A DNA stretch of 64,000 nucleotides from IMG/VR virus record IMGVR_UViG_3300037112_000094, positions 1 through 64,000 of that record. One strand, 5' to 3'. The position numbers were made by a program, and so were the translations under genes. Below are positions 18,699-64,000 of the stretch, piece by piece. Source of the stretch: an uncultured virus (IMG/VR IMGVR_UViG_3300037112_000094). Its lineage: Duplodnaviria > Heunggongvirae > Uroviricota > Caudoviricetes. How positions within the stretch are numbered: the first letter of the stretch is position 1; each line of letters opens with the position of its first letter. Below the pieces are notes generated by a model, which did not search any database, was not told the DNA's origin, and was given only the letters and a program-made list of their open reading frames with translations.

Positions 18699-18778
18699 TG
18701 GTGGGCAGAGTGGAATTCGAATCCACAAAATCACAGCCGTCTGAAGACTGCCGCTTTGCCAAATTTGCGTACCTGCCC
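18699..18778 (-). tRNA. tRNA-Leu(CAG), short variable loop
   Basis: CAGTC-TTCAGAC-GGCTG; A73. Confidence 0.8.
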
Positions 18779-18779
18779 G

Positions 18780-18856
18780 TGGTGCGCGAGGGGGAAATCG
18801 AATCCCCAAACACCAGACCCTCGATCTGGCGGCTTTGCCTGTTTGCCTACTCGCGC
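18780..18856 (-). tRNA. tRNA-Leu(GAG), short variable loop
   Basis: CCAGA-TCGAGGG-TCTGG; A73. Confidence 0.8.
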
Positions 18857-18864
18857 GTGAAACT

Positions 18865-18940
18865 TGGAGGACCGGGCCGGATTTTAACCAGCGATTAGCA
18901 AGGTTGCAGCTTGCCGCGTTTAACACTTCGCCACCGATCC
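18865..18940 (-). tRNA. tRNA-Cys(GCA)
   Basis: GCAAG-CTGCAAC-CTTGC; U73. Confidence 0.9.
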
Positions 18941-18941
18941 A

Positions 18942-19018
18942 TGGTGCCCGCAGGGGTACTCGAAACCCCATCCCGACCTTTTTAAGAAGTCGCGCTCTGC
19001 CATTTGGCGTACACGGGC
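18942..19018 (-). tRNA. tRNA-Leu(TAA), short variable loop
   Basis: GACTT-CTTAAAA-AGGTC; A73. Confidence 0.8.
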
Positions 19019-21233: not shown

Positions 21234-21323
21234 GGACGATACTGTTTCACAAAGCAGTTTTTGTGTCAATTGCGATCTTTTATTCACTTGACAGTGAACA
21301 GCATCCAAACTATCTTCAAGCGC

Positions 21324-22562
21324 ATGGCTGAGCAACCCACGCCGCTCCTCTTTATTTCCGATAGTCCGTCATCGTCGAGTGGCCTCGGCAGGATATGCCG
21401 AGACCTCACGACAAGGGCGCACGAGCATTTGACGGATGTCTACAGAGTCGGAGTCTTAGGCCACGGCGGACCGGGCTCCCGCAGATTCGGTTTCGTAAAT
21501 TATGTGATCGAGGGAATGCAGGAGTGGGCCATCCCAACACTTCCTGAAGTCTGGGAGGATTTTGCTGGGAACGAACCGGGTATCATCTGCACTATTTGGG
21601 ACCTATCGCGCTTAGATTGGATTGCGCAGCCAAAATACTCTGAAGCCGCCGTGCTCAAGAATCCGGAATTGCGCCAGTGGCTCGTCAAACGTCCGTTCAA
21701 GCTCTTTGGGTACGTGCCAATAGACGGCTCAGGCCCGAACGACAGGCTCTCGTTTCCCCTTATGCGGACGGCGCTGGGCTTCGACCGTCTGCTGGCCTAC
21801 GGTCCGTTTGGTGAAGGCGTCCTATGCAGAACCATCGGCGATAAGCAAGCGGCTGAGCGTCATCTGACAAATTTGCCACACGGCTTTGATGGCGATGTCT
21901 TTTACGAGAGAAACCGCGCTCTTTGCCGTCACATGTTCTTCCAGATCACGGGCGGGCAGCAGATTATGGAGGATCACGGCCCCATCACGGAAGATGAATG
22001 CCTGATTTCCATAGTCGCCACAAATCAGGATCGCAAAAATTGGGCGTTGGGTATCGAAACGGCGGCGATACTTGCCAGAAATCGCAAGGTCCGCCTTTGG
22101 GCGCACACAGATGCATTCGAGCGATTTTGGAGTATACCAGCGCTATTGTGCGACTACGGGATGATCGACAAAACGATAATCAGCTTGGGCCAAATTACCG
22201 ATCAAAAAATGGCAGAAGCACTATCCGCCTGCGACCTCATGCTCGGAATCGGACCCGAGGGTTTTGGACTCCCGTTAGCCGAAAGTCTCGCCTGCGGCAC
22301 TCCCGTGATCACTGGCTCTTACGCTGGCGCAGCGGATTTTGTCCCAAAGGAAATGCAAGTCGATCCGATGGTTGACGGTTCGGGAAGTGCAGCGTTTTAC
22401 CATGCGGGATCATTTGGCACCAAGCGCCCTGTTTACAACGCAGAAAATTGGGCGGCGAAGGCGAACGAATGGATCGGAAAGCGAACGCATCTCGATCCGC
22501 GCTACGAGTGGAAGAACAATTGGGTTGCGTGGGAGAAGTGGTTTCGGGACGCGGTGAAATGA
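21324..22562 (+). CDS. GT-B (GT4-like) glycosyltransferase
   Basis: SDSPSSSSGLGR; EGFGLPLAESLACGTPVI; TTGACA-N17-TATCTT-N7-ATG. Confidence 0.85.
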   Translation: MAEQPTPLLFISDSPSSSSGLGRICRDLTTRAHEHLTDVYRVGVLGHGGPGSRRFGFVNYVIEGMQEWAIPTLPEVWEDFAGNEPGIICTIWDLSRLDWIAQPKYSEAAVLKNPELRQWLVKRPFKLFGYVPIDGSGPNDRLSFPLMRTALGFDRLLAYGPFGEGVLCRTIGDKQAAERHLTNLPHGFDGDVFYERNRALCRHMFFQITGGQQIMEDHGPITEDECLISIVATNQDRKNWALGIETAAILARNRKVRLWAHTDAFERFWSIPALLCDYGMIDKTIISLGQITDQKMAEALSACDLMLGIGPEGFGLPLAESLACGTPVITGSYAGAADFVPKEMQVDPMVDGSGSAAFYHAGSFGTKRPVYNAENWAAKANEWIGKRTHLDPRYEWKNNWVAWEKWFRDAVK

Positions 22563-23182
22563 GTGTGTGGATCACCAATTTCAATAACCTAAATCGAGGG
22601 TTTAGCCGTCTTGTTGATTGGCTCATCGAGGCTGATGTTCCCTTCACTGTCATCGACAATGCATCGACATGGGAGCCGCTGCTTAGGTATTACGAGGCCG
22701 CGCATTTTCCCATAGTCCGTTGCGAGAAGAATCTTGGGCCTTATGCGTTTTGGGAACTTGGCTTTCATCAAGCAGCAAGAAGGTTCATCGTCACGGACCC
22801 AGATGTTGTTCCCTGCGCGAACTGTCCCAGAGACCTCCTTGAGCGTATGAGCCTAATGATGGACAGGGGATACAGTACGGTCGGGCCGTCACTTCGTATC
22901 GACAACCTTCCCGACTGTTACGATGCTAAAAATAGGGTTATCGCTTGGGAGCAGCAATGGTGGCAGCGTCCTGTAGATGGAGGGTTTGAGGCCAATCTCG
23001 ATACAACTTTCTCGATGTATGAGGAGGGAACGATGCCGCGCGCTTGGGATAATGGGCTCCAAGGTTGCAGATTGGCTCCGCCATATCAGTTCGAGCACCT
23101 TCCTTGGTACGAAGGTCCGGGACCTAATCCAGAGCGGGATTTCTATAACGCCACGAGGCGAAAGGAGTGGACAAATTGGTAA
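22559..23182 (+). CDS. GT-A (GT2-like) glycosyltransferase
   Basis: VIDNAST, NLG, VTDPD. Confidence 0.75.
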   Translation: MSVWITNFNNLNRGFSRLVDWLIEADVPFTVIDNASTWEPLLRYYEAAHFPIVRCEKNLGPYAFWELGFHQAARRFIVTDPDVVPCANCPRDLLERMSLMMDRGYSTVGPSLRIDNLPDCYDAKNRVIAWEQQWWQRPVDGGFEANLDTTFSMYEEGTMPRAWDNGLQGCRLAPPYQFEHLPWYEGPGPNPERDFYNATRRKEWTNW

Positions 23183-23676
23183 TCGTGAGCATGACGGAAG
23201 CTTCGGAAGCGTGGAAGCAGACGGCCTGTAACAATTGGGCTTCTCACCTCCCGCTGCTGAGAACCTGCGGCTGGGCGACGAGGGTTTTGGAACTTGGTAT
23301 GGGGAGATACTCTACGCCAACATTCCTCAACTCAGCCCTGTTTCCCTTTCTTGATACCTTAGTCTCAGTCGAAAGCGACCGTGGATGGATTCAGCAGTCA
23401 GAGGACGCGCGGCACAAAATTCATATCCATCCAGAGCCCATCGAACCATTTCTCGACGACTTTGATTTAGAGAATTTTGATTTGATTTTCGTCGACAATT
23501 CCGACAAAGCCGAACGGCGTATTGAAACGCTGAAGTACATCTCGTCCCGGCAACCAAGAAGAGCAAGCGTTCTCGTACACGACTGGGAGCGCTATCACGC
23601 TGCGGTTACAGGATTCAGGTTTGGCATCCTCGACGACAGACAGTTGCCGCACACGGCGTTAGTTTGGGGAAGATAA
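23167..23676 (+). CDS. class I SAM methyltransferase-like protein
   Basis: VLELGMGRYST; FDLIFVD; VHD. Confidence 0.65.
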   Translation: MDKLVIVSMTEASEAWKQTACNNWASHLPLLRTCGWATRVLELGMGRYSTPTFLNSALFPFLDTLVSVESDRGWIQQSEDARHKIHIHPEPIEPFLDDFDLENFDLIFVDNSDKAERRIETLKYISSRQPRRASVLVHDWERYHAAVTGFRFGILDDRQLPHTALVWGR

Positions 23677-24479
23677 TGAATCTTACCGTATCTAGCATGT
23701 TTCGCAACGATGCGCTCTATCTTCGCGAGTGGATCGAATTTCATCTGCTAATGGGTGTAGGGAGATTTTATCTCTACCATCAGGGAACCAGCACGCCGGA
23801 AGATGGCTGGAGGGAAGTTCTTCATCCGTATGTCGAGCGACGCATCGTTGATGTGAAAGAGTGGCCGTATAGGTGTCATCATAGCGGGGGCAGGAACGCC
23901 CAGATCGATGCGAATCAAGACTGCATCGACAGAATCAAAGGGCAAAAGGGATGGCTTGCCTTAATCGACAGCGATGAATTTCTTTTCTCGCCCCGCTACG
24001 AGACTGTTACCGAAGCGCTCGCTACTTTGCCGCAAACGTGCGGCGCTGTTGGGGTCCACTGGATGATGTTCGGATCGAGCGGGAAGCAGGAATGGGAAGA
24101 CGCTCCAGTGATCGAGCGATTTACTTGGAGGCCGAACGAAAGTCTTCCGTACAACCGCATGTACAAAAGCATCGTCAGACTGGACGATGCTGCCCTCTCA
24201 ACGCTTGGCAGTGAACACCATTTTCAGACCAGCGGTGGAACCATCAACGAAGATGGAACGCCTCTGCTCGACAGAGAGGCACCACCGCGCTCTTCCATCC
24301 TCCGGCTCAATCATTACTTTACAAAGTCGCGTAAAGAGTGGGAGCAACGGCATCCCATAGACACGAGCGGTGAGACTTGGGGGCGCGACGAAAATCGCTG
24401 GCTCTGGGTGCAGGCGATGGATGTAGACGACCGAACGATTCAACGATTTCTAGCAGCACTGAAAGAGAGACTGAAATGA
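23676..24479 (+). CDS. glycosyltransferase, GT92/GT2-like
   Basis: FRNDALYLREWIEFH..GV..FYLY; IDSDEF; LNHYFTKS. Confidence 0.85.
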   Translation: MNLTVSSMFRNDALYLREWIEFHLLMGVGRFYLYHQGTSTPEDGWREVLHPYVERRIVDVKEWPYRCHHSGGRNAQIDANQDCIDRIKGQKGWLALIDSDEFLFSPRYETVTEALATLPQTCGAVGVHWMMFGSSGKQEWEDAPVIERFTWRPNESLPYNRMYKSIVRLDDAALSTLGSEHHFQTSGGTINEDGTPLLDREAPPRSSILRLNHYFTKSRKEWEQRHPIDTSGETWGRDENRWLWVQAMDVDDRTIQRFLAALKERLK

Positions 24480-25000
24480 ATATCGCGCGAGCTTTGGCGA
24501 CGCCCGGTTGGATGAGCGAAGGGGAACTGTCTTACTTGGCCGAGGCTGCGAGTCGACGCCGTACCATCCTCGAAATTGGAAGCTGGGAAGGACGCAGCAC
24601 GATAGCTCTGGCTGAGAACACGAAAGGTGTCGTCTACGCTGTCGATAGCTGGACTGGAAGCATGGATCACAGGAGCGAACTGAGCGTGCAGGTATTGCCT
24701 GATTTTCTTCGCAATACTCAAGGCTTAAACAACATCCTTCCAGTTCCAATGGCATCACTGAGAGCGTGTGCGGTCCTTACGGAGTGCGTCGTTGACTTCG
24801 ATATGATCTTTATCGATGCTTCGCATGAATATCAGGACGTGAAGGCGGACATTCTTGCGTGGCGACAACTGTTGAGCCATGGTGGAATCCTGTGCGGCCA
24901 CGATTATGGAAACGAGTGGGCTGGGGTGAAGCAAGCCGTCGACGAACTGATTCCAAACTTTAGGCTGGTTGAAACCATTTGGACCACGGAGGAAGCATGA
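24476..25000 (+). CDS. class I SAM methyltransferase
   Basis: LEIGSWEGRST; FIDASHEY; GGILCGHDY. Confidence 0.85.
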   Translation: MNIARALATPGWMSEGELSYLAEAASRRRTILEIGSWEGRSTIALAENTKGVVYAVDSWTGSMDHRSELSVQVLPDFLRNTQGLNNILPVPMASLRACAVLTECVVDFDMIFIDASHEYQDVKADILAWRQLLSHGGILCGHDYGNEWAGVKQAVDELIPNFRLVETIWTTEEA

Positions 25001-25653
25001 GCGACTACCGCGTTTTTGTGCCGTTTGTAAACCGTCCCGACTTGCTCCACAACGCCGTCGAATCGCTGGCAGACGTGAAGCAGTACCTCGCCATCATCGA
25101 CAACTCGGTGGGAGATCAAAAATATCCATGGGATAACTTCGAGTCTCAGACCTTCAGACCTGTCGTTCCATACACGTTTTCGCAGACGATGAATCTGATC
25201 CTCAAGATCACGCGAGATACGGACGCAAAAATCTGCGTATTCATGCACTCGGACGCAGAGGCCGGTCCGGGTTCAGTGATGGCGCTGATATCTCAGGCAC
25301 GAAAGCTGACCGCCGAAGGCACGAAGTGGGGAGTGCTCTTCACAAATTACGATGCTCTCGCCGCGTTCAACGTGAACGCCTTCGAAGACATCGGCGGATG
25401 GGACACGAACCTTCCGCAATACTTCAGCGATAACGATACATATCGCCGCCTGAGACTCGCGGGCTGGGAGTGCATCGACACGGGCCTCCCAGTCAAGCAC
25501 GAACCATCACAGACGATCAAGAGCGATCCAAAGTTAAATTTCATCAACGGCGTGACCTTTCCACTCTACGGGTTCTATTACGAGCAGAAGCACGGAGGGC
25601 CTCCCGGAAAGGAAAGGTTCGACAAACCTTTTAATGGAGCGCTTGATCGATAA
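24997..25653 (+). CDS. GT2-like glycosyltransferase
   Basis: IIDNS; HSD; IGGWD...YFSDND..RR. Confidence 0.75.
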   Translation: MSDYRVFVPFVNRPDLLHNAVESLADVKQYLAIIDNSVGDQKYPWDNFESQTFRPVVPYTFSQTMNLILKITRDTDAKICVFMHSDAEAGPGSVMALISQARKLTAEGTKWGVLFTNYDALAAFNVNAFEDIGGWDTNLPQYFSDNDTYRRLRLAGWECIDTGLPVKHEPSQTIKSDPKLNFINGVTFPLYGFYYEQKHGGPPGKERFDKPFNGALDR

Positions 25654-28682: not shown

Positions 28683-31600
28683 CTATTGTCCAAACTGTTG
28701 TCCGGGTTTCACCGAGCCAAAGCCGTGGAACTTCATCCACGCCCTTCCCATCGGAGTTTCGCCATCGGGAAACTTCTCAGCGTAGAACTTGCCGAATTCC
28801 TTGTTAGCCGCAGGCGTCGAATCGTGCATATGCTTCGTTGCCCACTCCGTCGCCTTCTGTGACAGGTCTGTTGGCGGCTTCAGCTTCTCCGCCGCCCTCT
28901 TCACGCTCTTGAGGATGTTGGGGTTCGAAGGATCGTGTGCGCCCTCATTTTTTACAGATTTTATCTGCTCGGGGTAAAAGGCGATATACGAGTCGGTGCC
29001 TTTGTCTTCAAACTCGTTCCGATAAACAATGCCGTCATAGCCTTCGCGCTTTGCTTTCGCAACAGCAGGAGCCCAATCGTCTTCCTGATCCTTTACGCGT
29101 TTTGGATTTTGAATTGAAAGATATGCTTCCGTGAGAGGCATATCTTCGTCAACTTCTTGCTCGGTTGCGCGTTGCTCAAGATCGCGTCTCGCTGCAGCCT
29201 CCGTTTCAAACCCCTCTTCGTCAAAGTCGTAAGATTCCTCACTCCCCGACGACCATCCCCATACCATCTTTCCGTCTTCGTTTTCGTATTGTTCGACCTT
29301 GCCCTCACGGATAAAGTCATCGACAAGCTTCCCGCCGTTCCTCGACTGAGCCGCATCTCGTGTTCCAAAATGAAATCCGTTTTCTCCGATGTCCGGAACG
29401 GGGTCCTCTTTTTCGTCGAACCATCCGGAGTGGAACACGGGCTTAGGCTTCCCACTTTCGTCGGTCACCTTCGATTCTTTGAACCACGTCTTGAATTCGG
29501 GAGTATCCGTCCTCGCAGCGGCAGGTTGCAGAGCCTCAGCTTCGCGCTTGACCTTTTCTAGGCCGACTCCTTCCGCTCCTCCGCGTTGCGCTGGCGGGCC
29601 AGTTCCCTCAGCCCCTTGAGGCCGTCCTTTTTGTACGCCTCCCATGCCTCTCGCATTTTCTTGGACTCCGGGGAATCGGTCTGTGGTCGAGAAGTAGACA
29701 TTTTTCACTTCCTTTGCTAATGCGGTGATGTGGAGAAGCTCGTTGAGCGCCTTGTCTCCGTGCTCTGCTTCGACAGCGTGGAAATACTGAAAGAGATATG
29801 CGGCCCACTCGTCGTCCGTCAAGCCCAAACTTCTTGGGGACTCAGAAAGCATCTTGGAAGACGCTTCAAGGACACGCCTGCGGTTCATCACTTCACTTCC
29901 GTCGTTCTTGATCTCTGGATAGTTGGTGCCGAGATAATCGCTCATCGTCTTCGGCATCGCGACGTTCAAATTCGCAAAGTGTTCCGGAGAAAGATGGTTT
30001 CCTGCTGCGTCCGCGAATCGCCTTTGCCAGCCATGGTTCAATTCCTCGCGCAATGTGGCGAGCGCCTCACTCAGACTCTCTCCCTTCCTCGGCATCATAG
30101 AGATTGTCAGGCCATTCTTGTCCATGCCCCTGAGCATCATCTGCGTCAGTTCGCCGTGGAGCAGTGGCTTCAGCAACGCGAGATTGTTTGTGATCGCCTT
30201 GATGTCTGAAACATCGAGCGAGAGTCCGCTGAGGCCGTAATTCTTCGGCGGCGGTCCACCCATCAAACCGTGGTAGAGAGCCTTAAGTCCGCCACGGTTC
30301 AGGTAGAGAACTCTGTTTCCATCGGGAAGCTTGCGAATCTCGCCGATTTCTTTGTTCTTCAGTTCCCCAATGCGTTGGGCGATCTCCTTGTACCGCTCAA
30401 GAGAGGGAGCCGCCTTCTGTGCCCACGCCTTATATTCAGCACCCCACTTCTCAATCTGCTCCGGCGTGCTTGTGGAGACAGGGTCCGCTGGCGGTGGAAT
30501 CTGATCAAGCATACGTTGCACTTCGTAGAGCGCCATTTCCTCTCTGGCGATCTCGACTTCGCTTGCGGGCTGCGGTTTGTAGAGCAGCTTGAACAACGCG
30601 AACGGCCTGTTATTTTTATCTTCGACGGATTCAGTTGGACCATTTTTCGCTATGATCTGTCCATGCCTGTTCAAAGATTCTGCGAGTTGTGCGGGGCTGA
30701 GTTCTGGAGATACCCGAGCCAGATCAACGCCGCCAAGAATTGGGGCCGATGGTGCTCCGTTTCCTGCGCCCAACTCGCCATTTCCCAAGACCCCGCCGCC
30801 AAGGCCAAGATCGCCGCTAAGATCAGTGCTGCTAACAAAGGGCGCAAAAGCCCCAAGGACGCTAGGGTTCGCCTTAACTGCGCGAACTGCGGCCAAGAAT
30901 TCCTTGTCTCTACCTGTAGGATTCGGAGGAAGTACCCCATCAAGTGCTGCTCTAAAGCGTGTGCCAGCCAATTGAAGAGCACTCGAAAGCCCTCTGGCTA
31001 CCGTCGCTCGGTCATCGACGGGAAGAGCGTTGCTGACCACATCATACTGGCTAAAAAGTTGTTTGGTAGTGAAGCCGTTCTTGGCAAGCACATCCACCAC
31101 ATCGACGGGGATCGACTGAATAACGATCCTAGAAACCTTATTGTTCTTACCGAGCGCCAGCATCGCAGTGTTCACAACTTCCAGTGGATGAATGGAATCC
31201 TGCTTACCGCCAATGACATGTTGCGTTTCTTCCCTGATGCCCTCTGGTGTGGCGCTCCGAATTTTCCCGCCGCCTAATTGCGGAAGAACTTGTTTTGTAA
31301 CGTCGATAGCGTGGTATCCATTCTCGTCCTTGCCGATCTTGAAAATGCGAGTGACCGCATCGAGCGAAGTTGGCTTGTTAGTTGCTATTTCCCCAGCGCC
31401 ATGTCCTGAAGTTTCTGGGACTTTCGATGCATCTAATTCAATCACATAGCCCCCGTCGTGAACGTAGCTCGTCGCGACATTCGGACGATCAGAGAAAAAT
31501 GTCAACCCTTGATGTCCGCTCTTTCCTAAGCGCGATGCCGTTTCAGAAGTGGAGGCTATGCTCTTCGACGCGAGTATATTTCCAAGTTCTTCTTCGCCAT

Positions 31601-32573
31601 TCGTGCCGCGATAGAGACGGTCCGGTGATTTGTTGGCGGAGAACACTACTTCCGCTGTTGACAAATCTGGTTCCTTGAACGAAGGCCGCTTTACCTCCGC
31701 TTCCTTCGGGCCGATTGTTTTCGGTGCAACCGCAAGCTTGTTTGCCTCAGCCTTCACTTCCGGCAGCGACGGAGGCTCGGCTCTCTTCATCTTCGCCATC
31801 GCGTCAACAACCGATCTGACTCCGGTCGATTGCGGAACGATTTCATGCTCTCCGGCGCGCTCAAACTCACCTTCGATGGTCTTCGGTCCCTCTGGGAAAA
31901 GCGCGCTTGTGTCGACCGCCGTTCCACGCACGGCGTGCGAGCCCGCGAGACCAGCCACTCCCAAACCGAGCAGCGATTGCGTAATGTACTGAGCCGCTTC
32001 TTTGTTCTTCCCTTCCTTAAAATCCTTTTCCGCTTCCTTCGCGTCGCGATACGATCCCCTCATGGCCTGCGTCGCGAAGAAGGCGCTCAGGAGCTTCGAT
32101 TCCGGAGCCGTGAGCATCAGCATGAGGTTCGCTGGCGTCAGCAGTCCCTCTGCAAAATTATGCGCGCCCATCATCGCGCCGCCAGTCAGCGGGAATGCTT
32201 TGTCGAACGCCTCGTTGGCTTTTCTGTTGCGCTCGTTGATTTCGGCTTCGGCTGGAGTGACGCCACCCGGAAATCCGAGCATCAGGTTGAATGCTTTGTT
32301 GATCCTGTCAGCCGTTTGTGGGATCGGCTGCGTAAGCCAATCCGGGATGGCGGAGCCTACAGGTTGCGCCGGGGCCAACTGGCGCGCGTGCTCCGACTCT
32401 TCCGTCATCACGCCAGCGGAAGATGGCAACGGAGACTGGCTCAGAGATTTGTCTTTTGTCGGCTTCGATTGCTTGAATTTTTTGATGACCGCAGCAACGT
32501 CTTCGTCGGGCAGAGTGGCCGGAAAGGCGATGATCGAATCGTCCACCTTGACGAGTTTGTGTTGTGCAGGCAC
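28683..32573 (-). CDS. large polyvalent protein with ADP-ribosyltransferase-like domains
   Basis: FKTWFKESKVTDESGKP..FH...YLSIQNP...GYDGIV...YIAFYPEQIKS; second LYRG...FFS motif; TATAAT-N6-GTG start. Confidence 0.7.
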   Translation of the reverse strand: MPAQHKLVKVDDSIIAFPATLPDEDVAAVIKKFKQSKPTKDKSLSQSPLPSSAGVMTEESEHARQLAPAQPVGSAIPDWLTQPIPQTADRINKAFNLMLGFPGGVTPAEAEINERNRKANEAFDKAFPLTGGAMMGAHNFAEGLLTPANLMLMLTAPESKLLSAFFATQAMRGSYRDAKEAEKDFKEGKNKEAAQYITQSLLGLGVAGLAGSHAVRGTAVDTSALFPEGPKTIEGEFERAGEHEIVPQSTGVRSVVDAMAKMKRAEPPSLPEVKAEANKLAVAPKTIGPKEAEVKRPSFKEPDLSTAEVVFSANKSPDRLYRGTNGEEELGNILASKSIASTSETASRLGKSGHQGLTFFSDRPNVATSYVHDGGYVIELDASKVPETSGHGAGEIATNKPTSLDAVTRIFKIGKDENGYHAIDVTKQVLPQLGGGKIRSATPEGIREETQHVIGGKQDSIHPLEVVNTAMLALGKNNKVSRIVIQSIPVDVVDVLAKNGFTTKQLFSQYDVVSNALPVDDRATVARGLSSALQLAGTRFRAALDGVLPPNPTGRDKEFLAAVRAVKANPSVLGAFAPFVSSTDLSGDLGLGGGVLGNGELGAGNGAPSAPILGGVDLARVSPELSPAQLAESLNRHGQIIAKNGPTESVEDKNNRPFALFKLLYKPQPASEVEIAREEMALYEVQRMLDQIPPPADPVSTSTPEQIEKWGAEYKAWAQKAAPSLERYKEIAQRIGELKNKEIGEIRKLPDGNRVLYLNRGGLKALYHGLMGGPPPKNYGLSGLSLDVSDIKAITNNLALLKPLLHGELTQMMLRGMDKNGLTISMMPRKGESLSEALATLREELNHGWQRRFADAAGNHLSPEHFANLNVAMPKTMSDYLGTNYPEIKNDGSEVMNRRRVLEASSKMLSESPRSLGLTDDEWAAYLFQYFHAVEAEHGDKALNELLHITALAKEVKNVYFSTTDRFPGVQENARGMGGVQKGRPQGAEGTGPPAQRGGAEGVGLEKVKREAEALQPAAARTDTPEFKTWFKESKVTDESGKPKPVFHSGWFDEKEDPVPDIGENGFHFGTRDAAQSRNGGKLVDDFIREGKVEQYENEDGKMVWGWSSGSEESYDFDEEGFETEAAARRDLEQRATEQEVDEDMPLTEAYLSIQNPKRVKDQEDDWAPAVAKAKREGYDGIVYRNEFEDKGTDSYIAFYPEQIKSVKNEGAHDPSNPNILKSVKRAAEKLKPPTDLSQKATEWATKHMHDSTPAANKEFGKFYAEKFPDGETPMGRAWMKFHGFGSVKPGQQFGQ
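30663..31277 (+). CDS. HNH endonuclease nested antisense inside the polyvalent protein gene
   Basis: two CxxC...CSxxC zinc motifs; IHHIDGDRLNNDPRNL...H...H; TATGAT-N6-ATG. Confidence 0.85.
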   Translation: MPVQRFCELCGAEFWRYPSQINAAKNWGRWCSVSCAQLAISQDPAAKAKIAAKISAANKGRKSPKDARVRLNCANCGQEFLVSTCRIRRKYPIKCCSKACASQLKSTRKPSGYRRSVIDGKSVADHIILAKKLFGSEAVLGKHIHHIDGDRLNNDPRNLIVLTERQHRSVHNFQWMNGILLTANDMLRFFPDALWCGAPNFPAA

Positions 32574-32670
32574 GGCACGATTATAGACGAAATTCAACGA
32601 TTTACGGAGTATAATCGGGGCGTCAGGTGTTTGCGCACCCGGCTCACGCCAACCGGAAAAGAGGTTTCCG

Positions 32671-33582
32671 ATGACACCCCACGAAGAAAATATACCAGAA
32701 AGCATAAAGCGGGTTTGCTGCAAATGCCGTATCCCGAAAATACTGGAGGAATTCCATGTTGATCGAGGAGAGCCGCATGGGCGAAAGTATAAATGCAAAA
32801 TATGCACGTACTCTGACAAGAAAGCAAGCTACAGAGAGAAGCATCCGAAACGCGAGATCGTCAGACCAGAATCAAAAATATGCTCTTCTTGCACCTGCTC
32901 ATTTAATGGGGTGCCTCAGCCGTTGGGCAACTATTCAAGATCAAAAAGCGGCCTCTACGGTCGTGCCTCGCGATGTAAGCAATGCGGGCGATCCTATCAG
33001 CAGAGGCAGTATGAGAAAGACGCCGATCACGTCAAGGAGATAAAAAGGAAATCAGAAAATAAAAATAGGGGACATAAGCGATTATGGCTGCTGAAAAAAT
33101 TGGAGGAAGACCCCGAATACAGAAAGCGTATATGTTCAAACTCTTATCTCAGAAATAAGGGGGCGATAGCCTCTAAAGCAAGGAGTAAAAGAATGAATAA
33201 TCAAGATGTTGCAACATGGGACAGAAAAAACAGACTGAAAAGTCGTGGAGTAGATTTAGAGTGGTACGAAAAGACCCTCGCCGCTCAAGGTGGAGTGTGC
33301 GCTATTTGCGGGTCGCCTGACAGTAGGTATCCAACCGGAAGATTTTCTATCGACCACGATCATAATTGCTGTAAACCCGGTCGGTCATGCGACAAATGCC
33401 GCCGTGGTTTGCTTTGTGTACTTTGCAATACGTGGATTGAGAGATTTGAGAAATACCCGAAGCTCGCGAGACGCGCGCTTGCATATCTAAACAGGCACAA
33501 GCGTTGCAGAGAAGATGATCTAGCAGACTTGCCGCTGTTTGAAGATCAAACGGGTATTATTCTCCCAAGCTCTTCGCTGTAG
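32671..33582 (+). CDS. endonuclease VII-like homing endonuclease
   Basis: QGGVCAICG...IDHDH..C...RGLLCVLCN. Confidence 0.85.
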   Translation: MTPHEENIPESIKRVCCKCRIPKILEEFHVDRGEPHGRKYKCKICTYSDKKASYREKHPKREIVRPESKICSSCTCSFNGVPQPLGNYSRSKSGLYGRASRCKQCGRSYQQRQYEKDADHVKEIKRKSENKNRGHKRLWLLKKLEEDPEYRKRICSNSYLRNKGAIASKARSKRMNNQDVATWDRKNRLKSRGVDLEWYEKTLAAQGGVCAICGSPDSRYPTGRFSIDHDHNCCKPGRSCDKCRRGLLCVLCNTWIERFEKYPKLARRALAYLNRHKRCREDDLADLPLFEDQTGIILPSSSL

Positions 33583-36092
33583 ACGTGGCTCCAAACGGGC
33601 TTCGGTCCGCCTCCGCCTTGGAGCGCCTGAGCCGATTCGATGATCTTTTGCAAATTAGCTGCCGCTACCGACGCCTGCGGTCCGGGTGGAGGCGGTGGCG
33701 CAGCCGGTGGGGCCGGAGGCGGGGCGGGTGGAGCTTGCAACTGTTCGCCCTGCTTCTTGACATCGAGTAGCGCTGGAGGTGTTTGCTGTGTCGCCTTTCC
33801 CCCGGCAAGCCACGCCGCCATTGCTGGAGCGATCTGCAAGCTATTTAGGCGCGGGTCTCTGAGCTTGTCCTCGTTGGCGAGAAGATTGAGCGATAGACGA
33901 AGCTTGTCCGCATCCTGTGGCGGAAGGCTCTCGATCATCTGCATGTCTTCGGCGCTCGGCCTTGCCAGCCATTCGAGGACGCTCGGCGAGCGCAAGGCTT
34001 TTGTCAGTAGCGTCACACCGACTTGTCCAACGAGCAATTCTCCACCGAACTCGCTCAAATTACCGTGTGCCAGCCTCGTGGTTAGTCCGCCAACGACAAT
34101 TCTCAATACCCAGCTTCCGACCTTGCCGTACTTGCGCAATCCACGGTCGATGTACTGTACGTTCTCCGCCTGAATGTTGGGAACCTCTGGATGCGGAGTG
34201 AGTGGTTTTGGCTCAAACTTCGATGCTGGTTCAAGCGGCGGCGGCGGAAGTGTGATCTGCTCGCGAAGAGGCTGATCCTTGGGAAGTGCCTTCAGTCCTG
34301 CTTGCAAGTTTTCGACGTGTTGCGCGAGCTTCGGAATCGAATGATCATATTGCCCGACCCTTCCAAGGTAGTCTTCCAGCTTCGCGTCCCTCGTGAAGCC
34401 CGGTGTGACCTTCGACCTGACGTAGTTCGCGGCGGTTCCCGGTGTCGTCTGCGTGTTCCGGAATGTGTCGACGTAGGGGCCATGGAGGGCGCGCGCTTTC
34501 TTCAACTCATCGTCGGCTCCGGCCTCTTTTGAAACATCCTCTTCAAGCTTTCGGACGACCTGAAGCACCTGTCCGATGGCGTACTTCACATTGCCAGTGC
34601 GGTCGGCGCGCACTGCATCTTCCAACTGAGTCTTCCACCCATGGAGACGGCTGGCGGAAATCTGTTTAAGACCGCGTCCGCCGCCCGTCGCGCCACCACC
34701 TTCACCACCAGTGGCTTCATCGGCTAGATCGCCCAAACCGATACGCTTTATTTGATCGTCAATGACCGCTTTTCTGTCGGGCGGAAGTTCTGCGTATGGT
34801 TTGTCGTAGCCTGCGTTCTTCGCGATAGAGTTTCTCGTCTGGTCAAGCTCGGACAAATCCTCTTCCGCTGGCGCTGTCTCGCGAAGGATTTCCTTGAACG
34901 TTGAAACTTGCTCCGGACTCATCTTGTCCGTTTGTGCCTTGATCGCGTCGACCACGGTCTGCATATCCACTTGGACATTGGCGACCTTGGCGCGCCATAC
35001 CTTCCACGCGGCATTGTTAGCGGCGTTCGCGTCCTTCTCGGCCTTAGCGATCTTGTCGTCGAGTTCCTTCGATGCGGTGTCCAACTTTTGTTGCGTGTCG
35101 ACGCGCTTCTGGCGGTCGCGCATGACCGCATCGTTGCGCTTCCGTACTTCGTCGGTTGCCTGCTGGTGCTTGGCCTCCTCTTCCTGCCGGTCCTTGATGG
35201 CCTTGATCTTGTCCTTTCGGTTCTGCTCAGTCTCATTGACGTTTTTCTTCCGCACATCCTCGGATTCCTTGCCGAACTTCTCAACCGTCCGCTCGGTGTT
35301 TTCGGATACGCCCAATGTATCCCTGATCCCAGTACGCAAATGCTCGGCTGGAACTATACTCGTCTTCGCGTAAACCTCCCCCACGGTTTTTGCCGCTCCG
35401 TGAGTGACGGCGGCGAGTATGCCCATACCCGCGATGCTCCCCAGCAAATTGTCGACAGCCAACTTTGGGTCCTTCTTCGCGTCCTCACGGAACTGTGTAC
35501 GCAATTGGTCCGGAACTTGCGTCGGATCGATCATGTTGAGGAGATTGTTCACATCCTGCGCGCCAGCACTCGGACGCACCGCCCCATAAAGAGCCACTGA
35601 CAAATCCTTCAAAAACTCCGGTGCGCTGTAAAGACTTCTGCCAGCCGCTTTCATAGCGTTAACATCGAATCCAGACGGAGCAATCGGCATCTGACCAATG
35701 CGCCCAGTGGATGGCTGCAAGAGATTTTGAATCTTGTCGTTCGCCCTTTCGAGAATGGTCGGTCCCTCGCCTTGATGCTCGAAGTCCCTTTGGTAGCGCG
35801 GTGCTTCGTCTGGATGAAGATGGAAACCGGCATCGATGGCCTTTTGCACGTTGCTGAAAGGAATCTGAACCTCATCCGATATATTTGTGAATCCCTGATC
35901 CGATGAGGGGAGCATCCGGTACAGCCCCTCGCCCTTCGGATTCGCGGTGAAGTCCGCTTGTGGAGCTTCGAGCCTTTGCCGAATTTGCTTCAGCGCATCT
36001 GGAGACATCTTTCCAAGGACAAGCCTCTGCTCGGGCTCTGAGAGTTTCCTGAGCTTCTCGATTGCCTGATCGTAAGTGAGATCGTTTGCCAT
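33546..36092 (-). CDS. putative internal virion / ejection protein
   Basis: 848-aa helical, coiled-coil ORF in the virion operon. Confidence 0.55.
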   Translation of the reverse strand: MANDLTYDQAIEKLRKLSEPEQRLVLGKMSPDALKQIRQRLEAPQADFTANPKGEGLYRMLPSSDQGFTNISDEVQIPFSNVQKAIDAGFHLHPDEAPRYQRDFEHQGEGPTILERANDKIQNLLQPSTGRIGQMPIAPSGFDVNAMKAAGRSLYSAPEFLKDLSVALYGAVRPSAGAQDVNNLLNMIDPTQVPDQLRTQFREDAKKDPKLAVDNLLGSIAGMGILAAVTHGAAKTVGEVYAKTSIVPAEHLRTGIRDTLGVSENTERTVEKFGKESEDVRKKNVNETEQNRKDKIKAIKDRQEEEAKHQQATDEVRKRNDAVMRDRQKRVDTQQKLDTASKELDDKIAKAEKDANAANNAAWKVWRAKVANVQVDMQTVVDAIKAQTDKMSPEQVSTFKEILRETAPAEEDLSELDQTRNSIAKNAGYDKPYAELPPDRKAVIDDQIKRIGLGDLADEATGGEGGGATGGGRGLKQISASRLHGWKTQLEDAVRADRTGNVKYAIGQVLQVVRKLEEDVSKEAGADDELKKARALHGPYVDTFRNTQTTPGTAANYVRSKVTPGFTRDAKLEDYLGRVGQYDHSIPKLAQHVENLQAGLKALPKDQPLREQITLPPPPLEPASKFEPKPLTPHPEVPNIQAENVQYIDRGLRKYGKVGSWVLRIVVGGLTTRLAHGNLSEFGGELLVGQVGVTLLTKALRSPSVLEWLARPSAEDMQMIESLPPQDADKLRLSLNLLANEDKLRDPRLNSLQIAPAMAAWLAGGKATQQTPPALLDVKKQGEQLQAPPAPPPAPPAAPPPPPGPQASVAAANLQKIIESAQALQGGGGPKPVWSHVYSEELGRIIPV

Positions 36093-36094
36093 TT

Positions 36095-37690
36095 TTACTG
36101 TGGCGGATGCGCAGGTGCGGTTTGCGATGGTCCGTTCTGTAGGGTTCTCATGATCGCATCTAGGTCGGGATTCGTGGACGACGGCGGTGTGGAACCTTCG
36201 GGCTCGCTTTCCGATGTGTTTATGTCGTCGAGAACTTGCTTCTTCGCCGTTTCGTTTTCATGCGCGCCGTCAATCAATTGGCGGAGAATATCGGCTGGCA
36301 AAGCACCGTGTGTCGGATTATTGACCCACTGCTGAATCGTGTTCCCCCATCCGGATGTGATGATGTAGTCGAGAGCCTGTGTCGTGAACCTTCCGGCGCT
36401 GACTTTCTCAAGAGCAACAGCAAGGCGCTTCTGGTTGATCGCATCGTCCGGATGCTGTGCCACCAGATCAGCAATTTTAGACAATCCCTTGGCAGTCTCG
36501 TAGTCCTTGTACGCTGCCGTGTACTCCGGTGTGCGGCCACGGAGAACCGCCTTGCCGACATGAGTTGCACCAGATGACGCGGTCGGTGAGCCAGCAGCCT
36601 GTGCCTTTTTCTTTACCCCGCCCAAATGCGTCGGTTGTCCCTCTCCGGGTTGAGCATTTTCATCTTCGCCCGGTAACGGCCCACGGGGTGGCTTCAGGAT
36701 TACCCCAAATCCGGGGACACGGCGATTCGTTTCCGTAACCGGCACATACCAGCCGTTTAAGTCCTGCTTCAGAGTGGTGGTGATGCTCTCGGAGGGGGCC
36801 GCACTCGATAGCGCCGTTTGCTGGTTGATGAACAGAATATCGGCCACAGTCAGAGGCTCCCCTTCAGGGATGTTGTAGTCGTGTCTGTATGCGGCCTCCG
36901 TTTCAGCGAACTTCGAATGACTCGCCTTTCCTGCTGGCTGCGTGTATCCGGGAACCTCTTCGCGGAAATCGGTGCCGTCCGGATTCAAGAAACGCTGGTA
37001 GAATTTTCCATCATTCGAGTCTTTGTAAGGCTGTCCTATCGCCTTCACGCCCTTCGTGAGAGGAACCTTGGCGAGGCTCGCCACCGCCTGATCGATTACC
37101 TCTTGTGGGGCATTATTCTTCTTGAGCCACTCAATCGTCGCTTGGTTAACAGCGTTTGTTCTTGTGATCTCCGTTTGCGCTGTTGCCTCTCCTTGCTCGG
37201 TTGGAGACGGCGGTCCTGCGGAGGCAAGCTGAGTAGCCTCGGCCTGTGCCTTAACTTGCTCCGGCGTTTGTGAACCCTGCTCGCGGATTTCGTAGGCTGG
37301 GCCTGCTGGAATTTTCTCTCCGTTCGCGTCAATCGTCGACTGTCCGTAGATCGGAGGCGGAGCGGGAGCCGATGCTGGCTTCTTAGGGAAACGGAGGTCC
37401 TTGCCCAACATCTTTCCGAATCTCATCAGCGCGTTCGGATGGGTCTGGCTTCCCCAATGCTCGTCGCGTGTCTGCAGAGCTTGCGCTAGTTGGTCGCGTG
37501 TTTGGAGATACTCCGTGCTGCTGGGATCGAGCGTCGAGAGTCTGGTCTGGAGGTTGTCCACCATCCCCTGAATTTCGTTGTGCTTTTCCTGAAACTCAGC
37601 GTCGGACAAAGCTTGCTTGTGAGCGCGCCGTTCTTGTCCGCGCTGTGCGCCAAGCTGCCAACCTTCTTGCCATGCACTCTCGTTCGCCAT
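36095..37690 (-). CDS. putative internal virion / ejection protein
   Basis: 531-aa Q/A/P-rich ORF, tightly packed with neighbours. Confidence 0.55.
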   Translation of the reverse strand: MANESAWQEGWQLGAQRGQERRAHKQALSDAEFQEKHNEIQGMVDNLQTRLSTLDPSSTEYLQTRDQLAQALQTRDEHWGSQTHPNALMRFGKMLGKDLRFPKKPASAPAPPPIYGQSTIDANGEKIPAGPAYEIREQGSQTPEQVKAQAEATQLASAGPPSPTEQGEATAQTEITRTNAVNQATIEWLKKNNAPQEVIDQAVASLAKVPLTKGVKAIGQPYKDSNDGKFYQRFLNPDGTDFREEVPGYTQPAGKASHSKFAETEAAYRHDYNIPEGEPLTVADILFINQQTALSSAAPSESITTTLKQDLNGWYVPVTETNRRVPGFGVILKPPRGPLPGEDENAQPGEGQPTHLGGVKKKAQAAGSPTASSGATHVGKAVLRGRTPEYTAAYKDYETAKGLSKIADLVAQHPDDAINQKRLAVALEKVSAGRFTTQALDYIITSGWGNTIQQWVNNPTHGALPADILRQLIDGAHENETAKKQVLDDINTSESEPEGSTPPSSTNPDLDAIMRTLQNGPSQTAPAHPPQ

Positions 37691-37694
37691 CTGG

Positions 37695-37961
37695 CTATGC
37701 CTTCCTCGCGACTCTCTTCCGCGCGGCCTTCTTCTTGCCGCCCTTACGGCGACCTTTGGCCTGCCCAGCGGTGAGAACCACCTCGTCCTTGTGGACGCGA
37801 GCGTACCCCGATTTCTTCACTTTTCCGCCCTTCTTGAAGGACTTCGGGCTCGCCATTTTGTCGGCGCTCGCTTGGACGAGAAATTTGCCTTTATTGTTCT
37901 TTTTGTCCTTGTGCTTTGAGGCAATATCCATTCCAGCTTGCCACGCTTCGTCGTTCGCCAT
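37695..37961 (-). CDS. small basic protein
   Basis: AAGGAG SD; FKKGGKVKKSG..VHKDEVVL. Confidence 0.65.
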   Translation of the reverse strand: MANDEAWQAGMDIASKHKDKKNNKGKFLVQASADKMASPKSFKKGGKVKKSGYARVHKDEVVLTAGQAKGRRKGGKKKAARKRVARKA

Positions 37962-37989
37962 TTTTGTCGTCTCCTTGTGATTTGTGACG

Positions 37990-38499
37990 CTACCCGCCAA
38001 GTGCAAATGCTTCCCCAGCCGCTGCACCAGTCGTGGTAGCGCGGCCAAGGATACTGTTGTTCCAGTTCTCATACCGTTGCTGGGACAGTTCGGCCTCCTG
38101 CCCGATGCCGGTCATGCCAGTCTTCAAGAGATCACCGCCAGTTGTCGCAAGACCACTCACAGAGCTTCCTGTGAGACTGCCGATGAGGTTCGTCATATAC
38201 TCGTGGAGCTTGTCCTTCGTCGCGGCGTTGGACGCGGCTGTACCTCCCGAGCGTGTGCCCAGTTCGGTAGCACTCTTGATGTCTTGTTGTGTGGATTTTT
38301 CGGCGGCGCTTCTTTCGGGAGCGATTGCCTGCGCCGTCTTCGTGGCATCGCCGCTCACGATGGAGTTCCACCAATCGGATGCAGCGGCTGTGTTCTTCTC
38401 GCCTCGCTGGGTAGCTTCGCCAGCGGCTTGGCTGGTTTGGCCGATGGCCGCGTTGAGACCTAGATTTTGACCGCCGAAAACCGATTCCCAGAAGCCCAT
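37990..38499 (-). CDS. G/A/T/S-rich pilot-like virion protein
   Basis: GGAGG SD; MGFWESVFGG N-terminus. Confidence 0.55.
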   Translation of the reverse strand: MGFWESVFGGQNLGLNAAIGQTSQAAGEATQRGEKNTAAASDWWNSIVSGDATKTAQAIAPERSAAEKSTQQDIKSATELGTRSGGTAASNAATKDKLHEYMTNLIGSLTGSSVSGLATTGGDLLKTGMTGIGQEAELSQQRYENWNNSILGRATTTGAAAGEAFALGG

Positions 38500-38596: not shown

Positions 38597-39805
38597 TTAC
38601 GCGTGCATGAGCATGTACTCGTCCGCTCTTTTAACGCCGGTACCGTTGTCGCGCATTCGATCCACGATCTTTGGATCGACCAGATCGGGGTGAATCCACC
38701 AGTCTTCCATGCTATCGTATTTCCTCGGTGCAATATCACCAACGACTAGAAGGTAGCCATGTGATTCAAGATACCGTCTACTACGCTCCTTGACAGTGGG
38801 GTCAGGAGAGAGGTAGTCGTCGTGTTCAAATGTAATCACAGCGAATTTTCGAGTTTCAAACGGTAGCTGCAACAATACGTTGAAGGAGTTCGGGTCGGTG
38901 TCGATTTGCAGATAGTCGTAGTCTTTTGTGATTAGCGCATCGTAGTCCAATTTTACGGCATCACCAGTGATGACGGTGCTTTTTCGTTCCTTGGCGTACT
39001 TCGCTGTTATTGACGGTTTTATGTCGATGGACACACCGCTCCATCCCCACTCCTCAAGCAGTTTCGTATTGTTCGTGAAGGTGGGGTCTCCGCATCCGAG
39101 TTCAAAAAACGTACCATCGCGCTTCCCGTTGAGCATCGTCAACACGAACATATCTTGGTACATCTGCGAATAGTTGCGTTCGATGAATCGTGAACCGGGG
39201 AATTTGACCCGCAGTTGCTCGTACATCGAGCCATAGTAGATTAGTGGGTCAGTCCACAACGTGCCGTCGAGCCTCTGTAGATTATTCTGTACGGCCATAA
39301 TGTGTACTGGCAACATCGTGGGATTCTTCTTCAATTGTCTAAGGAGATGAAGGGATTCATCGAACAGACCAATCCACCATGCAGATACAGCTTGTTCAAA
39401 CACCAAGGCGTATCGCCCCGGATAGTCCACGTTCGTGCGTAACTTTGGGTGGTCTTCATGCAGCTTCTGACCCATAATCGAGAAGGTGTAGGATTCCTGC
39501 CAATCCTTGTTGACCTCGTACAAGCGGCTCAGAAGAAAATAGGCTTCTGGCCGGTCGGGCATCAGAGAGATGGCCCTGAGCAAAATGCCTTTGGTCGTGT
39601 AGACCCGACAGCCCTGCCGTGTAAAACAGTTGGCAAGTCGCAAAAGCGCCTCGTAGATGAGCAAGGCGTTCGTTGAGTATTCAGTTGTCCTGATGTAGAA
39701 CCCGGCTGCTGCGGCGGTGTGACCTTGGTTTTCATACCAGTTCCCCAGCGAAAAGTTATACTCCGCGTTCTCGGGGTCACTGACGTAATTCAGCAGTTCG
39801 CTCAT
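38597..39805 (-). CDS. TPR plus FkbM-like methyltransferase fusion
   Basis: PDRPEAYFLLSRLYE (TPR); YSQMYQD...FFELG..NNT...DYLQID...ITFEHD...EDWW. Confidence 0.8.
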   Translation of the reverse strand: MSELLNYVSDPENAEYNFSLGNWYENQGHTAAAAGFYIRTTEYSTNALLIYEALLRLANCFTRQGCRVYTTKGILLRAISLMPDRPEAYFLLSRLYEVNKDWQESYTFSIMGQKLHEDHPKLRTNVDYPGRYALVFEQAVSAWWIGLFDESLHLLRQLKKNPTMLPVHIMAVQNNLQRLDGTLWTDPLIYYGSMYEQLRVKFPGSRFIERNYSQMYQDMFVLTMLNGKRDGTFFELGCGDPTFTNNTKLLEEWGWSGVSIDIKPSITAKYAKERKSTVITGDAVKLDYDALITKDYDYLQIDTDPNSFNVLLQLPFETRKFAVITFEHDDYLSPDPTVKERSRRYLESHGYLLVVGDIAPRKYDSMEDWWIHPDLVDPKIVDRMRDNGTGVKRADEYMLMHA

Positions 39806-61273: not shown

Positions 61274-61684
61274 TTACCTAGTTACCATCAGTGTTACGTT
61301 AACTGCATTGGTTAAGCTGGCCATCCACCCCGCGACATACTTTGGCCATAGATTGCTCGCCATGTCGTAGCGCCAGACAAATCCATTTGTTCCGGTTTGG
61401 CCAGTAGACCCCGTGCTCTTGATGCTTGCCAGTTGGATGTAGTTCGGTGCCGCGTCAATGTTGGCACCTAAAATATCTACTTCGAAGGTTCCGGGATTTG
61501 CTGAGAAGATCACTTCAAACGAAGCTCCCCACGGGTAGAAAGCATTGTCGAGACGTTCCAGCAAAAACCCCTGACTCAGCGAACCCGGAAAGGTCCCCGC
61601 AGGAACCGTTTCCACGTTCCACAAGAATCCTTGGCGGTTGACACGAAGAAGCGTTGCTAAACCGGGTCCGGGATATGTGGGCAC
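61274..61684 (-). CDS. virion-associated hypothetical protein
   Basis: AGGAGG SD before GTG. Confidence 0.65.
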   Translation of the reverse strand: MPTYPGPGLATLLRVNRQGFLWNVETVPAGTFPGSLSQGFLLERLDNAFYPWGASFEVIFSANPGTFEVDILGANIDAAPNYIQLASIKSTGSTGQTGTNGFVWRYDMASNLWPKYVAGWMASLTNAVNVTLMVTR

Positions 61685-61755
61685 TAAAAACCTCCTTCAA
61701 GCTGCGGTAGAATGGAAAAGCGGTCGAACACCGCAATTCCATTCGAGGTGGAATC

Positions 61756-62316
61756 ATGGCCAAGCGTCCCGCCAAATACTGCGTCCAGCGAGAGCCTGTT
61801 GTCCAACCGCACGATCAGTCTATCAAAATAATCGCGCTGACTAGAGGCAAGACAACCGTTGTCGATGCAACCGACTACGAAAGGTTGATGATAAAAAACT
61901 GGGTTGCTCTCTGGGACGATCACACGAAATGCTTTTATGCCAGAGGCACGCATGGTGGAACGGGAATGCACCGATACATTCTTGGCATAACCGATCCAAA
62001 TGTGCAGGTAGACCACTGGGATGGCGATACTCTTAACAACCGCAGAATCAATCTTCGTGTGACCAATCAAAACGGCAACCGCCAAAATCGCGGCGTCTAC
62101 AAGAACACAAACAGCGGCCACGCTGGAGTTTCTTGGCGCGAACGAGATCAGGTCTGGATTGTGTACATAAACACTAATGGTAAACGCACTTATCTTGGAC
62201 AGTATAAAGAAGATGACAAACAAAAAGCCATAGATCGGCGCGTCGAGGCCGAACGCGAACAGCATGGCGAATTTGCTTTTGCGAATCGTCATAAAATTAC
62301 CACATGCCCACGTTAG
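61756..62316 (+). CDS. HNH-AP2 homing endonuclease, antisense to the operon
   Basis: MHRYILG...VDHWDGDTLNNRRINLR; SGHAGVSW...YLGQY. Confidence 0.9.
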   Translation: MAKRPAKYCVQREPVVQPHDQSIKIIALTRGKTTVVDATDYERLMIKNWVALWDDHTKCFYARGTHGGTGMHRYILGITDPNVQVDHWDGDTLNNRRINLRVTNQNGNRQNRGVYKNTNSGHAGVSWRERDQVWIVYINTNGKRTYLGQYKEDDKQKAIDRRVEAEREQHGEFAFANRHKITTCPR

Positions 62317-63541: not shown

Positions 63542-63616
63542 TTAACTGCCTCCGATCATGGTAAAATCAGAAATCAGTGCGGCTCTCTGCTGCACAATCT
63601 CTTTCACGGAGAGACT

Positions 63617-64000
63617 ATGGAGCCCAGAGTGAAACGTCACCCTGTTGAGCAGCCGCTCGATCAGTCTATCAAACTCATTCCCCTCACAAAAGGTAAAACG
63701 GCCAGAGTTGATGCCTCTGAGTACGAGAGAATTAGCGCTAATAATTGGATGGCGACTTGGAATAAGTACACACGTTCCTACTATGCCCGCCGCTACAGCA
63801 AAGTCAAGGATGGACCGCCAAGACGTATGATCGCCATGCAGAACGAAGTCATGAGCAATGGAAAGATAAATGACCATGCAGACCGCAATACTCTGAATAA
63901 CGTGAAGAGCAATTTGCGTCCATCCACAGTTTCCCAAAATGGCGGGAACTGTGAGAAGAGAAAACACAATACGTCTGGATATAAAGGTGTGGTTTGGAAC
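63617..64000 (+). CDS. HNH-AP2 homing endonuclease, partial; paralogue of 61756-62316
   Basis: own translation: MEPRVKRHPVEQPLDQSIKLIPLTKGK...DHADRNTLNNVKSNLR...SGYKGV. Confidence 0.85.
   Translation, partial: MEPRVKRHPVEQPLDQSIKLIPLTKGKTARVDASEYERISANNWMATWNKYTRSYYARRYSKVKDGPPRRMIAMQNEVMSNGKINDHADRNTLNNVKSNLRPSTVSQNGGNCEKRKHNTSGYKGVVWN

Follow-up and report, generated by a model that had tools for sequence, protein, structure and literature searches.

A reversed HNH endonuclease gene in codon register inside a polyvalent virion-protein gene: a probable splicing-free, dual-coding element of uncultured phages

In the stretch of DNA analyzed here (hereafter the window: 64,000 nt, positions 1 to 64,000 of the 71-kb tailed-phage record IMGVR_UViG_3300037112_000094 in IMG/VR), a complete HNH endonuclease gene lies on the plus strand within a 1296-codon gene of the minus strand and leaves the frame of the latter unbroken, and the same arrangement recurs, at several sites, in giant proteins of other phages, with codon-level selection acting on both strands. 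We read it as a splicing-free, dual-coding gene of homing type, reversed and in register inside genes for ejection proteins, and from the sequence evidence laid out below we would put the probability of this reading at about 0.78.

The initial annotation of this region had described a complete HNH gene with a -10 box of its own, opposite a host frame that stays open in the same codon register, with no TTA, CTA or TCA in about 200 codons and no intron or intein signature, and on all of these points it was borne out (Table 1). The product contains zinc-finger CxxC pairs and an HNH_3 domain that scores 36.8 bits against a Pfam cut-off of 24.8 (E 3e-9), its His/Asn/His motif is intact in 10 of 10 aligned relatives, and as a nuclease it belongs to an established family, HNH_3; a PDB sequence search with the HNH alignment gave 0 matches. 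The offset between this ORF and the host frame is 0 modulo 3, and TTA, CTA and TCA were counted 0, 0 and 0 times. In 8 of 10 close relatives of the gene a TAnnnT hexamer precedes the start by 5-8 nt, in keeping with the TATGAT seen here, which was not among the promoters found by a two-hexamer scan. AT skew changes sign across the HNH gene.

Table 1. Features of the nested locus and of related antisense genes (window positions unless a locus is named)
Feature	Position	Strand	Remark
Host gene, 1296 aa, polyvalent, Cys-free, GTG start	28683..32573	-	start fits the N-termini of homologues
ART-PolyVal domain of host	28944..29462	-	PF18760, E 6e-10, over cut-off
Conserved core domain of host family, downstream of insert	29691..30593	-	no good restart site before core
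Antisense-encoded insert, ~225 aa (HNH ORF reversed plus promoter)	30600..31277	-	left edge approximate
TATGAT, putative leaderless-type -10 box of HNH gene	30651..30656	+	6 nt before ATG
HNH endonuclease gene, 204 aa, zinc-finger repeats and HNH_3	30663..31277	+	intact in relatives
Putative ART-like payload domain of host, directly upstream of insert	31278..31697	-	67% identical to P0005 495-646
TATAAT, putative leaderless-type -10 box of host gene	32580..32585	-	6 nt before GTG
Antisense EndoVII-type gene between genes (counter-example)	32671..33582	+	11 antisense stops
Three neighboring Cys-free genes (848, 531 and 169 aa), probable ejection-protein cassette	33546..38499	-	
Bridge ORF over first HNH-AP2 gene	61684..62292	-	ATG 4 nt after upstream stop; TAG overlaps downstream GTG
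First antisense HNH-AP2 gene, between two late genes	61756..62316	+	0 antisense stops
Bridge ORF over second HNH-AP2 gene	63542..64000	-	TAA abuts ATG at 63541
Second antisense HNH-AP2 gene	63617..64000	+	0 antisense stops; continues to genome position 64156
Third intergenic bridge case, EndoVII-type	L050:15582-16307		

As for the host gene, it combines a polyvalent-type domain, a late-gene context (an SU10 adaptor gene and tail genes lie nearby, and the structural operon runs on the minus strand) and an exclusion of cysteine, with 0 Cys in the protein itself and 0 in its three upstream neighbors. According to the available text of PMC11445570, ejection proteins share a conserved suppression of Cys, which perhaps helps them to cross the periplasm. 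Judging from this exclusion, from the ART-PolyVal domain and from what the available text of PMC5512222 says of polyvalent proteins, the host is probably an ejected, internal virion protein of the polyvalent kind, and the three neighbors, by their lack of Cys, probably form an ejection-protein cassette. The domain directly upstream of the insert has no Pfam match and was read as ART-like from its RxYRG...FFS motif.

Three homologues (P0004, P0005 and P0006, of 927, 1623 and 1414 aa) are single chains that share the N-terminal motif and the core and are without the insert, and this alignment, which had been suggested as a check, indicates that the host is one gene, so that the objection of two separate genes fails. 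The slot between N-terminal motif and core (P0002 660-960) holds payloads that differ among the three homologues, and in the window it holds the ART-like domain and then the insert. Within that slot, residues 413-510 of P0004, the closest homologue of the host, hold a 2H phosphoesterase with a weak match to Acb1 (anti-CBASS), and in P0006 the slot is filled by a methyltransferase and a GHKL ATPase.

That two host genes, split as Aeh1 nrdA is, might flank a frame that is open by accident is a reading for which the window itself offers some grounds. GC-rich genes frequently have open in-register antisense frames, and the window's other genes show several such runs of more than 200 codons; the probability of no antisense stop in the window's HNH gene, taken alone, lies between 0.007 and 0.34 according to which codon model is used, and between 5e-6 and 0.06 once Cys-giving codons are added. 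For these reasons the single case is not decisive, and the missing TTA, CTA and TCA codons of one gene are, alone, only suggestive; the calculation of codon absence that had been proposed thus speaks against chance across the family and not at the level of the single gene. Besides the single-chain homologues, however, no stop ends the part upstream of the insert, the in-frame starts between insert and core pair only weakly with an SD sequence (-2.5 and -2.9 kcal/mol), and the candidate restart ATG at residue 679 would truncate the conserved start of the core. As it is the family data that rule chance out, the pattern recurring at low GC and bearing a Cys signature, we consider an accidentally open frame extremely unlikely.

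The family in question was assembled mostly from the host side. Host residues 290-960, searched against 1.84 billion protein representatives, gave 149 matches, and an insert-only re-search of the 153 collected proteins found the insert in 69, 2 of which are the window's own. The antisense translation is present in 67 other protein clusters (50% identity), 60 of them longer than 1000 aa and 4 with two copies of the insert per protein, as opposed to only 2 close HNH relatives on record as proteins. Scans with an alignment of the reverse-strand peptide located 24 DNA loci (5 viral, 16 metagenome, 3 genome), and in 18 of them an intact HNH ORF lies inside a long host frame, open for 597 to more than 4280 codons or to the end of the contig. 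These 18 amount to 15 distinct genes including the window's, as L016, L018 and L019 repeat L017; loci of 33% and 40% GC are among them, and five of the genes (L007-L010 and L029) are of a more distant HNH type, matched at the motif only. The six loci that are not nested comprise a contig-edge fragment (L022), one locus represented three times with a 217-codon frame (L024-L026), a frame of 321 codons (L027) and a false match (L030). L017 and L018 are two identical copies of the nested locus on one contig, either a repeat or an assembly artefact. Locus scans with a single protein returned this phage and one weak match only, and the insert had no match in 50,697 GenBank phage records or among PLSDB plasmids. 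Taken together, the arrangement is real and widespread among uncultured phages, and the observation is broader than first noted, a recurrent element at several sites and not a one-off.

The codons of the nested genes are where selection on the second strand is most visible. In the 15 distinct nested HNH genes no CTN or TCN codon ends in A (0/317) and TTA is absent; the 13 free endonuclease genes of the window have 50 such codons out of 282, and 19 TTA. A GCA or ACA in the HNH gene reads as Cys in the host frame, and Ala and Thr codons ending in A, which give Cys, number 0 of 361 in the nested genes, against 103 of 409 for the Gly and Arg codons ending in A, which give Ser (Fisher 6e-32, a value that overstates independence as the nested genes share ancestry), while the free genes show similar rates for both (77/289 and 109/381). 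The gap persists with the window excluded (0/216 Cys-giving), in the five distant nested genes (0/117 versus 40/132) and when counted by alignment column (0/82 versus 35/83), which lessens the worry about ancestry and ascertainment. A depletion is likewise seen for codons that give Tyr, Trp or Phe, and is slight at most for those that give Leu or Ser. Over 80 insert segments, a few of them duplicated between loci and proteins, there is 1 Cys in 14,818 residues, and whole host proteins have 38 in 193,731, a count partly ascertained, as the set was retrieved with a Cys-free query. As a control, each of 12 HNH relatives retrieved by starting from the HNH side (33-41% GC, about 7 of them distinct) carries 4-14 stops in the antisense frame.

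Selection is seen on the HNH strand as well: in 40 of 45 pairs its frame shows higher conservation than the product of the host frame, identity by codon position in that frame follows the order 2 > 1 > 3, and the motif and CxxC pairs are intact. At fourfold sites of the HNH gene the likeness is 0.52, versus 0.33 in a synonymous shuffle and 0.34-0.57 in single-coding controls, which are few. Given the absence of both stop-giving and Cys-giving codons next to a quarter of Ser-giving ones, we conclude that selection acts on the reverse frame as protein. Neither gap would be expected in a segment that is spliced out or bypassed, which is our main ground for believing that the insert is translated and retained; most likely the reverse frame is translated and kept in the host protein, matching the Cys exclusion of ejection proteins, although the exclusion would attest to translation into the virion precursor and not to survival of the insert through maturation. 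The notion of a tolerated linker, put forward in the initial annotation, agrees with the open frame and can be refined in that the insert is more than a stop-free spacer, being filtered by amino acid, with no Cys and few aromatic residues.

Removal at the RNA level by a cryptic intron, or ribosomal bypass, with the open frame being incidental, must be considered, given that both are established routes by which phages carry endonuclease genes in coding sequence (PMC2988022 and PMC5009743, in their available text). Neither, however, predicts the two codon gaps, and no Rfam intron or ribozyme match was obtained in the window or in 10 related loci. The element extends from the HNH stop codon to about 45-60 nt past the ATG, with almost no non-coding sequence at its ends, and at the insertion site that we call B the HNH stop is 0-2 codons from host sequence, which leaves no room for an intron core. 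No target-site duplication was found, the longest end-to-end repeats being of 5-8 nt. We deem both routes very unlikely.

The insert could also be translated and then excised, in the manner of an intein, by protein splicing of a novel chemistry or by a prohead or polyvalent-protein peptidase. Like inteins, many copies do break into a conserved domain at a point flanked by conserved motifs, and polyvalent proteins have been proposed to be processed by peptidases (PMC5512222, available text). The copies, on the other hand, have in common none of the terminal residues of inteins (a Cys, Ser or Thr start; a His-Asn end followed by Cys, Ser or Thr), no intein Pfam profile matched, the model of the insert (mean pLDDT 56.6) is helical and does not suggest the all-beta HINT fold, and the depletion of Cys and aromatic residues fits a segment that travels with the ejected protein. 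Excision is accordingly a reading to which we assign a low probability, and retention of the insert is the one we pursue here.

The position of the copies within their hosts is informative about their mobility. Their main target is a conserved, unnamed domain of polyvalent proteins (ExQSDW ... WxELAxKR ... GMxGFYD; P0137 1156-1455, P0009 593-910), of which the window has no copy; it is highly conserved, corresponds to no Pfam family, matches only polyvalent proteins of uncultured phages in BFVD, and in the ESM Atlas only unnamed clusters below 0.9. Site A follows the QSDW motif, site B falls between a helix and a strand, site C comes after the next short helix, and further sites lie downstream of these and in linkers. 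A read-through endonuclease as an alternative to splicing, as originally suggested, is supported by these data, but its placement between host domains was too narrow a description, as the element is often inside a conserved domain. Sites A, B and C are occupied in some proteins and empty in others, that is, presence is optional at the level of the family as expected of a homing gene, and among proteins with the same core domain as the window's host there are some whose target domain is an empty allele. An exact empty allele of the window's own site, with the ART-like domain joined to the core, was not found; homologues without the insert carry other payloads there. The empty alleles of site C have a variable subdomain that is missing from the occupied ones, so that some events were replacements and not clean insertions.

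A tree was drawn from 75 segments, leaving out 4 duplicates and any weak or short rows, with site labels assigned by regular expression (some of them wrong); on it the labels require 26 changes, versus 44.7 when shuffled, and no site forms one clade. That labels cluster and yet need so many changes would fit site fidelity combined with repeated moves. The window's copy sits in a linker, although it groups with copies of sites B and C; the match closest to it, P0159 (55-58%), belongs to the same host family and occupies a different position.

It might be asked whether the reverse-strand peptide is instead a domesticated, functional domain of ejection proteins, shuffled as a payload, with the HNH gene riding along. 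The insert was modeled with a helical first half and an unstructured second half (mean pLDDT 56.6), and AlphaFold2 was confident of a helical core (pLDDT above 85 at insert residues 51-100); this, and a fourfold-site likeness somewhat above that of the sparse controls, would suit such a function. Confidence of that kind, however, can derive from conservation imposed by the HNH gene, whose frame is, as said, the better conserved of the two; none of the 15 distinct nested loci has a broken HNH gene with the host frame kept, L022, whose N-terminal half is altered, being a contig-edge fragment, and most members of the host family do without the insert. Domestication therefore seems improbable to us. 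Fold searches with the insert model gave no match at E<=0.001 or Z>=8, the ESM Atlas gave none usable, and the peptide has no Pfam family.

Other antisense endonuclease genes of the same phage offer a useful comparison. Among 23 endonuclease-like ORFs, drawn from the window's genome and from the fetched parts of its longer twin, four have no in-register antisense stop and all four are opposite to their neighbors; apart from the nested gene, these are intergenic (two HNH-AP2, one EndoVII-type). Each is spanned by a bridge ORF that links the stop of the gene before it with the start of the gene after it and whose last codons contain SD sequences. The three together have 0 of 37 stop-giving codons (P about 7e-4) and retain 15 of 69 Cys-giving ones, which means that any selection on them is for openness alone, and they act as an internal control for the Cys exclusion of the nested genes. 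Bridge ORFs could serve translational coupling or protection from polarity, and may represent a stage preceding the nested forms. Behind the EndoVII-type gene listed in Table 1 as a counter-example, the next gene has its own -10 box.

The sequence of events that we envision would be as follows. An element made of the HNH ORF and some 45-60 nt holding a leaderless promoter would come to sit reversed, in codon register, in a gene for a giant ejection or polyvalent virion protein; the host mRNA would be translated straight through, and about 210-225 residues would stay as an insert that such modular proteins tolerate. Synonymous choices in the HNH gene would clear the insert of stops, of all Cys and of many aromatic residues, with the HNH protein remaining the more conserved product of the two. 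On the opposite strand, the HNH gene would be transcribed by means of a promoter of its own and yield a nuclease that probably nicks or cuts element-free alleles in co-infecting phages, which would amount to homing, and the element would occasionally move to a new site. Among antisense geometries, the reversed, in-register one is alone in letting every protein be written with no stop imposed (PMC8903798). As with inteins, the insert would make precise loss the sole safe one.

A frameshift artefact is an unlikely source of the open frame, considering that another public contig matches at 100% identity across 13,956 nt, and that at least half of the region's words are present in 15 runs, 7 of which are possibly the source. 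Reads of four runs, aligned to the region, gave short contigs of depth 2-8 without joints, and no RNA contig over the insert. It was thought that runs with about 0.58 of the words might be without the ART and HNH cassette, which is contradicted by run X12, where there is depth over the insert.

Elsewhere in the window, 32 tRNA matches are interspersed with many HNH and GIY-YIG genes at 1168-19018, where several predicted endonuclease ORFs overlap the ends of tRNA genes. A TnpB/IS605-type gene with a Cas12f1-like TNB domain is found at 2775-3917, and an ORF that resembles TnpA by its translation only lies at 2348-2803 on the opposite strand. A plus-strand cluster at 21261-25653 is glycosyltransferase- and methyltransferase-like, and radical SAM/SPASM and TPR genes stand within the structural operon at 38597-41628.

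If our reading is right, these loci exemplify a repeated and datable route by which protein domains are born from antisense DNA, and dual coding on opposite strands would be added to introns, inteins, gene splitting and bypass as a way for such genes to survive inside coding sequence. They would also supply natural 600-nt antisense overlaps by the dozen, independent of one another and marked by a clear codon signature of two-strand selection, and bear on the reality of long antisense overlaps and on de novo domain birth. There is a warning for annotation as well, as the HNH gene is discarded by gene callers in favor of the giant ORF, and the insert would be mistaken for an ordinary unknown domain. 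We hold it somewhat better than an even bet that a whole class of splicing-free selfish elements is involved, in which reverse strands of HNH genes of more than one subfamily serve as portable, Cys-free, host-compatible inserts that let them home and transpose into essential virion genes, with bridge ORFs as intermediates. No description of the arrangement was found in the open-access literature; the mode of accommodation, a selfish gene living inside an essential one, is probably new. In the cultured Mycobacterium phage Mantra, and hence in a testable system, a same-strand counterpart exists: an HNH ORF of 229 codons (L063:2339-3028) in another frame of gene 64 (L063:1440-3764), which is annotated as a 774-aa methyltransferase and also holds a LAGLIDADG domain; phage Totinger matched too.

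Among known systems, inteins with homing endonucleases are in-frame inserts translated with the host, often in conserved motifs, that leave the host ORF whole. The element described here would share all of this, its translation being the inferred part, and differs in having no splicing domain or terminal residues, in that the insert appears to stay, and in that the nuclease would be a separate product, encoded on the opposite strand under a promoter of its own. Free-standing HNH homing endonucleases of phages that lie within genes are known from mobE in nrdA of Aeh1 and mobA in gene 39/60 of T4 (PMC2988022, available text); these too are HNH genes without intron or intein within a conserved host coding region, with apparent transposition to new sites, but they split the host into two polypeptides, whereas here it stays one ORF, the endonuclease gene is antisense and its reverse strand is selected as host protein. 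The group I intron-encoded endonucleases of T4 td, nrdB and nrdD, described in the same available text, likewise have their own promoter inside the host transcription unit; here there is no ribozyme, and selection acts on the inserted DNA at the level of the protein that it encodes in the host frame. The bypass of T4 gene 60, linked to a homing endonuclease, skips 50 non-coding nt (PMC5009743, available text) and is another case of an insert tolerated without splicing, although in ours about 660 nt are apparently decoded. With polyvalent proteins (PMC5512222) and Cys-free ejection proteins (PMC11445570), as the available parts of these sources present them, the host shares ART-PolyVal, variable payload slots, late context and absence of Cys; in the available text of PMC5512222, "antisense" and "intein" are absent and "HNH" occurs once, unrelated. 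Finally, in -0 antisense overlaps any amino-acid pair can be specified with no forced stop, and overlaps run long (PMC8903798, in whose available text the words "HNH" and "endonuclease" are absent). The frame geometry is the same as in the viral overlaps treated in that part of the source, but here a whole gene is involved, which recurs at several sites in many hosts and behaves as a mobile unit.
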